From Octopus vulgaris (taxonomy: Eukaryota): a stretch of 64,000 bases of DNA. Shown piece by piece: positions 40,866 to 41,322 of the stretch. The notes beneath the pieces were generated by a model that was not told the origin of the DNA, ran no database searches, and worked only from the letters and a program-made list of their open reading frames with translations. The DNA is taken from contig OX597831.1 in assembly GCA_951406725.2 (NCBI GenBank), forward strand, positions 81,468,001 to 81,532,000. Direction: 5' to 3'. Numbering within the stretch: position 1 is the stretch's first letter; the number at the start of each line of letters is the position of its first letter. A program made the position numbers and the translations under genes.

Positions 40866-41322
40866 ACTCCTCCTCATCTCTCTCACTGCTGAGTGGACTA
40901 CCAACTTTCTTTTGCCGCAGCGACTTTTTCTTGCGCTCCGAAATTTTCCATCGTCTAGGCTTAAAAAAGCCCTCAATGGTGGTTTCATTGTCCTGTTTTT
41001 ATTCTCTATGTGTACTGTATTTTTATTTGTATTGCTTTTACGTCCTGTTCTTGTCACATTTATTTTTCTTTCCTTGTTTTAACCCTCCGCAAAAGAATTT
41101 TATTTAATTCTTTTGTAGGAAGGACTGGATCGACCGGTTCGTGTTCTGTCCTTACCTTCGAAACACGCATTGAGTCGAACCAGGGACAGCTGATGAAGGG
41201 GACTATTCCTTGTATTGTTTGTCTTGTACTCTGTTTTTTCGTTGTTAAAAAAAGTCCGTTTCTTAGTTGTATTTATGTATTCGTTTCTCGTTGTGTTCTA
41301 CGTTTATTTGTGGTGTCCTGTA

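Follow-up and report, generated by a model that had tools for sequence, protein, structure and literature searches.

A predicted hammerhead ribozyme of reverse order with a four-way-junction core, in a likely Penelope-like retrotransposon of Octopus vulgaris

Can a hammerhead whose parts stand in the reverse cyclic order cut itself, and how would it be wired? The question is raised by a site in the window studied here, a 64,000-nucleotide stretch of the Octopus vulgaris genome. On its + strand, all core parts of a hammerhead lie within 41140-41196, as read from the sequence and confirmed by the scan: CGUG-U-U and then CUGUCC(UU) at 41140-41153, CCUUC-GAAA-CACG at 41155-41167, and (AG)GGACAG-CUGAUGA at 41182-41196. 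They follow the reverse cyclic order (cut site, GAAA, CUGAUGA), and CUGAnGA, GAAA and UH adjoin their stems as in hammerheads, these being the features that the scanner required. The proposal of an earlier note on this DNA, a pseudoknotted fold of hammerhead type in a non-circular, reverse order, is thus borne out by sequence and scan. The note placed the motif at 41140..41201; its 3' end holds, helix IVa ending at 41201, but at the 5' side the motif reaches 41082. The complete RNA (41082-41201) lies within an ~800-bp Penelope-like repeat, family A. With a probability of roughly 0.7, we predict that it is a copy of a self-cleaving hammerhead of reverse order with a four-way junction in its core, carried by a likely Penelope-like retrotransposon. 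Its parts are as follows.

41082..41086, + strand: 5' strand of helix IVa, bearing the open ends; pairs with 41197-41201, with four of five pairs and one mismatch in this copy
41087..41118, + strand: helix IVb, a 13-bp hairpin that stops at the base preceding G10.1; one mismatch beside the junction in this copy
41119..41123, + strand: 5' strand of stem II, GAAGG, with G10.1 at 41119 and its partner at 41155-41159
41125..41134, + strand: 5' strand of Pext, the helix that connects stem I to stem II; partner 41174-41183, one mismatch in this copy
41140..41145, + strand: 3' strand of stem III, U16.1 (41144) and H17 (U41145); cut predicted at 41145/41146 by analogy with known hammerheads
41146..41153, + strand: stem I strand 3' of the cut, represented by 41146-41151 in the six-helix fold
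41155..41167, + strand: 3' strand of stem II (C11.1 at 41159), GAAA (G12 at 41160) and 5' strand of stem III
41174..41183, + strand: 3' strand of Pext, running on into stem I
41184..41196, + strand: 5' strand of stem I and the CUGAUGA core (C3 at 41190, A9 at 41196)
41197..41201, + strand: 3' strand of helix IVa, immediately 3' of A9; previously read as a strand of stem II

Much of the geometry first proposed was retained. Stem I, described as 8 bp, has six Watson-Crick pairs and reaches eight with its extension, whilst stem III, described as 5 bp, consists of four pairs plus A15.1-U16.1. The short linker expected between stems I and II measured 1-5 nt in 18 of 19 examples. What had been taken for an extension of stem III is a separate 10-bp helix, Pext (41125-41134 with 41174-41183). 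It starts beside the upstream strand of stem II and its partner runs into stem I; automatic parsing gave it 4-11 bp. The strand from GAAA to CUGAUGA can be as short as 16-17 nt. With one mismatch each in IVa, IVb and Pext, the copy at 41082-41201 is mildly decayed.

The main revision concerns stem II. A 4-bp stem II built with the strand after CUGAUGA has two G-C and two G.U pairs and about -4.1 kcal/mol, against -8.7 for the upstream GAAGG (41119-41123). The scanner for metagenome loci required block order, core, stem I and stem III only, and did not demand stem II. Fifteen examples were compared, five of them octopus families anchored by hand and ten metagenome loci; A2 and B were omitted as kin, and family C, missed by its anchor, was covered in helix parsing and in the IVa/IVb test. 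In these examples an upstream strand, 16-39 nt 5' of the cut, pairs with the strand before GAAA. Pairing is Watson-Crick at positions 1-3 in all 15 and at positions 4-5 in 13, and five to seven both-side changes were found at each of positions 2-5. The scanner required neither the G10.1-C11.1 pair that closes stem II nor a purine at 16.2, yet both were invariant (15/15 each).

The upstream strand is the best of ~40 positions, hence the region was shuffled as a null. The combined p value was 6.8e-7, with 8/15 examples at p<=0.05 singly; as some examples are kin (L247/L265 and L192/L193), the combined p values are optimistic. With stem II taken with its 5' strand, both-side changes occurred in each of stems I, II and III over the 15 examples, and this covariation across families makes a chance arrangement very unlikely. 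The covariation of stems I-III on which the earlier note had staked its fold is therefore present between families, but stems II and III showed none within families A and B.

A plain type-SGC hammerhead, with stem II formed by the strand after CUGAUGA and the upstream pairings acting as the off state of a switch, would require that strand to behave otherwise than it does across the examples. It supplied the first stem II pair, G10.1-C11.1, with a bulge in only 4/15 and without a bulge in 1/15. A 4-bp helix with two G.U pairs is possible in families A, B and C, but D, E, F and 8/10 metagenome examples offer no helix at all (0-1 bp), and in the published squid Naiad the strand after A9 repeats, as judged by eye, the sequence of its supposed partner. 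It also has a better partner upstream, in helix IVa. Precedent for the SGC reading comes from the SGC-1 and SGC-3 ribozymes of Eckert et al., in which a single extra base separates A9 from stem II (supplementary oligonucleotides, PMC10085705; here and below, papers are cited from those parts that were available). We regard a plain SGC hammerhead as quite improbable and rejected a stem II built with the strand after CUGAUGA, given the rarity of its G10.1-C11.1 pair, its weaker energy and its upstream pairing. Because that strand pairs upstream, the RNA is not plain type SGC.

The wiring between A9 and G10.1 is accounted for by two helices. Helix IVa is formed by the strand directly 3' of A9 together with a strand 5' of the motif; hairpin IVb starts at the base that follows and reaches the one before G10.1. 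Of 16 examples taken as independent, 13 had IVa and IVb together at p<0.05 when compared with dinucleotide shuffles of the upstream 70 nt (combined p 5.6e-14). The pairings were not significant in family N (p=0.75 and 0.25), family D (0.20) and L265 (0.47), and were weak also in the A2 copy L009 (0.65) and in the present copy (0.22). In 9/21 examples there was no unpaired base at any junction step. Among 18 A and B copies, 94.4% of cells pair in the six-helix structure versus 40-47% when it is slid, with both-side changes within these families in IVb (3 pairs), Pext (2 pairs) and stem I. Helices IVa, II and III showed zero both-side change within A and B and are uninformative there. A competing 3' hairpin had also been suggested; at -3.1 kcal/mol it is weak beside helix IVa, at about -10 to -11.5. 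We infer that IVa and IVb replace the A9-G10.1 link and would form a four-way junction in the core.

Folding energies that exclude pseudoknots point elsewhere. For this copy the minimum-energy fold without pseudoknots (-40.5) differs from the nested skeleton lacking stems I and II, which has -30.5; we counted this against the six-helix reading, and pseudoknot-free folding of 41115-41215 was unremarkable (z -0.41). The six helices rest on sequence and covariation, and on these grounds we consider the fold very probably real. Further variants were seen when metagenome loci were parsed by eye. In L248 and L264 both helices are present but closed into hairpins, with 23 nt in total, between A9 and G10.1 in an otherwise CSG order, whilst L238 and L239 have the plain CSG order; together they suggest that the ring opens at different places.

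How does the motif compare with known hammerheads? Types I, II and III have a circular order that is reversed here, and Rfam returned 0 matches at the gathering score in the window and 20 loci, in line with the expectation that standard type I-III models would miss it. The block order of type SGC (cut site, GAAA, CUGAnGA) is present, but its intact block C, with the stem II strand at most 1-2 nt after CUGAnGA, is not. Non-LTR retrozymes are tandem units each with a type I hammerhead, and the ribozyme here is not type I. The motif has every testable feature of a hammerhead but is neither of types I-III nor plain SGC, and we class it as a new structural variant.

Eckert et al. 2023 (PMC10085705) described type SGC with the same block order as here, and Pext corresponds to their stem I/II helix. 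In their scheme block C of SGC and CSG (CUGAnGA and the adjoining stem II strand) was assumed unbreakable, and they stated that insertions between the two do not exceed 1-2 nt in any known hammerhead alignment; here the block is opened by two helices holding the RNA ends. Their SGC ribozymes came from metatranscriptomes, with none in genomes of known organisms, and their SGC and CSG sources together were metatranscriptomes and metagenomes, whereas the present motif sits in a high-copy animal repeat. The type I hammerheads found in Penelope-like elements and in non-LTR retrozymes (PMC4209133; bioRxiv 10.64898/2026.07.22.740005) share with it the site in the element, partial tandems, inverted truncated copies and the invariant G10.1-C11.1. 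They differ in their canonical order, a single bulged base between 9 and 10.1 and an often minimal stem III, in place of the reversed order and two helices found here. With the Naiad and Chlamys Penelope-like elements, which have an N-terminal endonuclease, the present repeat has (TA)n targets in common (PMC8557442).

The likeness of the predicted IVa/IVb junction to the four-way junction of the hairpin ribozyme is one of analogy only. In the natural hairpin ribozyme a perfect four-way junction positions the catalytic core. Weinberg et al. 2015 reportedly described phage hammerheads of canonical order in which a single helix interrupts the GAAA stretch. That work is cited for hammerheads with added helices in PMC13725137, and such variants have an extra core helix in common with the present motif. 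Core insertions in the available text of PMC3088659 are of 1-2 nt only, and the available parts of PMC10162972, PMC6765202 and PMC13725137 contain no such variant. In a literature search covering mostly open papers and few subscription ones, this wiring did not turn up, nor did a permuted hammerhead from an animal genome or from retrotransposons, or a rearranged ribozyme in Naiads. A precedent in Xenopus transposons, mentioned in the earlier note, was not found: 'Xenopus' occurs 0 times in the available text of Eckert et al. 2023 (PMC10085705), and the search returned no paper with 'XRH'.

In the six-helix fold, stem III and Pext form one hairpin, its large loop clamped by the 5' flank through stem II and by the 3' flank through stem I. 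In the mechanism that we propose, stem II can stay stacked on the core because the C11.1-G12 strand is unbroken, and would lie there on the A9.G12 pair. Helix IVa would stack on IVb through the other unbroken strand, giving the geometry of a stacked four-way junction. An ordinary hammerhead active site could then form and cut after 41145. In hammerhead chemistry G12 acts as base and G8 as acid, and a GUU triplet, as in family A, is usually slower. Tandem transcripts would be cut to unit-length RNA with ends held by stems II, III and Pext and fit for circularisation, which has been proposed for unit-length RNA of Penelope hammerheads (PMC4209133).

The six-helix fold may, alternatively, be real and yet the monomer not cut itself: it could depend on the protein of the element or on a partner RNA (a strand-swapped dimer or a tandem), or its role in the retrotransposon RNA could be mainly one of binding or structure. 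The lizard PAc hammerhead cut with protein only and was dispensable for insertion in vitro (PMC11167929), and minimal Penelope hammerheads are weak and act as dimers (PMC4209133). Stem III, however, has 3-5 bp plus an A-U pair here versus 1-2 bp in dimer-type motifs, and the related SGC and CSG RNAs cut without protein, at 0.004-0.19 per min in vitro (PMC10085705). The 16-17 nt between GAAA and CUGAUGA are a tight fit for three helices, which speaks for this alternative; the conservation of G10.1-C11.1 and of purine 16.2 in every example, unrequired by the scan, speaks against it. Nor is there a cleavage footprint in the 5' truncations of family N, where 2/80 copies end at most 2 nt from the cut against ~1.6 expected, and this lack of excess also fits a need for protein or dimer. 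Weighing these, we consider a fold without monomer self-cutting unlikely, and autonomous self-cleavage by the predicted ribozyme likely.

The element that carries the motif was examined across the genome (2.80 Gb, 227 contigs). In the 64-kb window, a scanner for all six block orders detected the present motif, a further copy at 44654 and a single match in canonical order. The carrier and the related copies nearby are listed below.

40567..41512, + strand: host repeat, family A; ~1.2 units of the ~800-bp Penelope-like repeat, with no long ORF and with (TA)n flanks
44539..44679, + strand: second family-A ribozyme copy, with G10.1 changed to A
38361..38415, + strand: degenerate family-A copy, 5'-truncated
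46792..46879, + strand: family-C ribozyme of other sequence and the same wiring, 5'-truncated at about the cut site

The host repeat contains a direct repeat (~40567-40701 and 41383-41512). Family-A copies form partial tandems spaced 727-804 bp, have inverted 5'-truncated partners (in L002, L005, L008, L011 and L015) and lie at microsatellite targets. Partial tandems and inverted truncated copies are marks of Penelope-like elements (PMC8557442), and the carrier of 41082-41201 is likely a Penelope-like retrotransposon. A pattern common to families A and B had 1,065 exact genome matches against 0 for its reversed control, and with the cores of seven families as BLAST queries, 600 kb of unselected DNA gave hits at 8 places, or ~13 per Mb when fragments are counted. 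The block order is also that of families C, D, E, F and N, whose sequences largely differ; beyond the motif, likeness is limited to A with B and D with F. The flank of family E in L056 (-), upstream of position 226, is purine-rich with an internal direct repeat and a TATA-like box, and is unlike those of families A-D.

Could the arrangement nevertheless be an inactive relic, or have arisen by chance inside a repeat? Most genomic copies, including this one, have mismatches, and only 9/30 family-A copies have an intact core and five scored helices, but decay of single copies is expected after insertion. Thirty dinucleotide shuffles of the 64-kb window (1.9 Mb) yielded no hammerhead in any block order, nor did 3 shuffles of 600 kb (1.8 Mb) when searched with a second scanner. 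Seven families and distant RT lineages follow the same six-helix plan with sequences that are unrelated. We consider a relic or chance origin very improbable.

The family-A loci that were inspected yielded no coding ORF, whether of the GIY-YIG/DKA/RT type or another. Two candidate parents were rejected: the Neptune-type endonuclease beside L053, which has its own canonical-order hammerhead-like motif downstream, and the endonuclease beside L026, which lies in the opposite orientation. Both are C-terminal GIY-YIG endonuclease ORFs (L053:2444-3112 (-) and L026:2536-3120 (-)) that we take to belong to Neptune-like Penelope elements.

Family N connects the motif to a coding element. It had 269 exact genome matches (reversed control 0), corresponds to the Naiad_Obim and Naiad_Ovul consensuses at their 3' end, and lies 3' of a Naiad-type RT in 7/12 stretches fetched, one of which was chosen knowing this; family A was found in none of these 12 RT-downstream stretches. 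Family A probably travels as a non-autonomous passenger with Naiad-type elements, a dependence that we infer because the ribozyme and (TA)n targets are shared. Inspection by eye showed the rearranged motif in the Obim, Ovul and Esco Naiad consensuses. Craig et al. 2021 (PMC8557442) reported, in the parts available, Naiads without canonical hammerheads and with only 'HHR_core' and 'HHR_half_core' flags; Naiad_Ovul and Naiad_Esco were flagged 'HHR_half_core'. By their sequence, the Ovul and Esco half cores are this predicted rearranged ribozyme. The half cores of Naiad_Parc, Naiad-3_Nbra, Naiad_Hpol and Naiad_Smim (nematode and spider; PMC8557442 supplement) resemble by eye type I with a long loop II insert. 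The 3' regions of Naiad-2_Dst and Naiad-3_Dst in the same supplement share a conserved, structured-looking motif with CUGACGA that we could not match to any hammerhead order.

Alignment of 28 Naiad-type proteins and a search with the alignment retrieved 80 metagenome loci. The motif was present in 10/80, always on the ORF strand and outside the ORF (7 downstream, 3 upstream), against 1 match in 10 shuffle rounds. Inspection added L260 and L249, as well as the CSG order in L238, L239, L248 and L264; a relaxed-core scan of the metagenome loci added 0. The L249:4580 variant seemingly lacks Pext and, by eye, has a hairpin in the linker from stem I to stem II. At L238:3480 and L239:2792, type-CSG hammerheads lie 3' of Naiad-type RT ORFs, and at L248:2351 and L264:3028 the CSG forms with two inserted hairpins start just past the ORF stop. 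Eckert's orphan CSG examples, from DNA metagenomes, may come from Naiad-type elements. No canonical-order hammerhead passing the scan was found among the 80 loci, and 64/80 showed no hammerhead, many contigs ending soon after the ORF.

In a quick RT tree of 79/80 loci the motif occurred in several distant, well-supported clades. The hallmarks of Naiads (N-terminal GIY-YIG, DKA motif, C-terminal RT) were found for family N and the metagenome loci: GIY-YIG matched in 6/6, below the curated cut-off in 4, RVT_1 in 3/5 full ORFs, and DKA was present in most metagenomic ORFs. Many Naiad-type ORFs (P0050, P0053, P0063 and others) have PF00443, presumably a ubiquitin carboxyl-terminal hydrolase, fused to the RT. 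The idea that all Naiads carry the motif was dropped: inspection by eye of the final ~600 bases did not reveal it in the oyster, mussel, giant squid or Octopus minor consensuses, and the 64 metagenome loci above showed none.

It is reasonably probable that the motif represents a new, ancient and active hammerhead subclass, a reverse-wired ring opened at A9/G10.1 by a four-way junction that can carry the RNA ends, a fourth opening. It would then be the missing ribozyme of many Naiad-type retrotransposons, with tens of thousands of whole or decayed copies in the octopus, and Naiad-type elements would be a source of orphan CSG ribozymes. Such a motif breaks the stated rule that CUGAnGA and stem II are inseparable, which restricts hammerheads to six permutations, and assigns a predicted ribozyme of non-circular permutation to an animal genome and to retrotransposons. 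It also offers an answer to the apparent absence of hammerheads in Naiads, which had served as an argument that Penelope elements need none. If active, it would offer RNA engineering a new place for insertions within the core, and ribozyme surveys would have missed a large class.

Other features were noted in the window. Canonical-order, Penelope-type hammerhead-like motifs (CUGAUGA-A-stem II-GAAA) occur at 45660-45715 (+) and 47115-47175 (+); such cores numbered 10 in 600 kb of unselected DNA versus 0 in one shuffle. Another hammerhead-like match, of canonical (type I) order, lies at 42689 (-); its stem II region is very long and rich in G.U. A splice-like pair spans 40685-41118 (+), with a donor-like GTAAG at 40685 and an acceptor-like YAG at 41117-41118 that would make G10.1 the first exon base. 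The pyrimidine tract and CAG at this acceptor-like site are explained by hairpin IVb, the acceptor-like site of family C lies ~250 nt upstream, and no joint across 40685-41118 was present in the contigs of four runs. Open reading frames at 49797-50423 (+) and 5679-6182 (-) resemble what we take to be fragments of mariner/Tc1 transposases.
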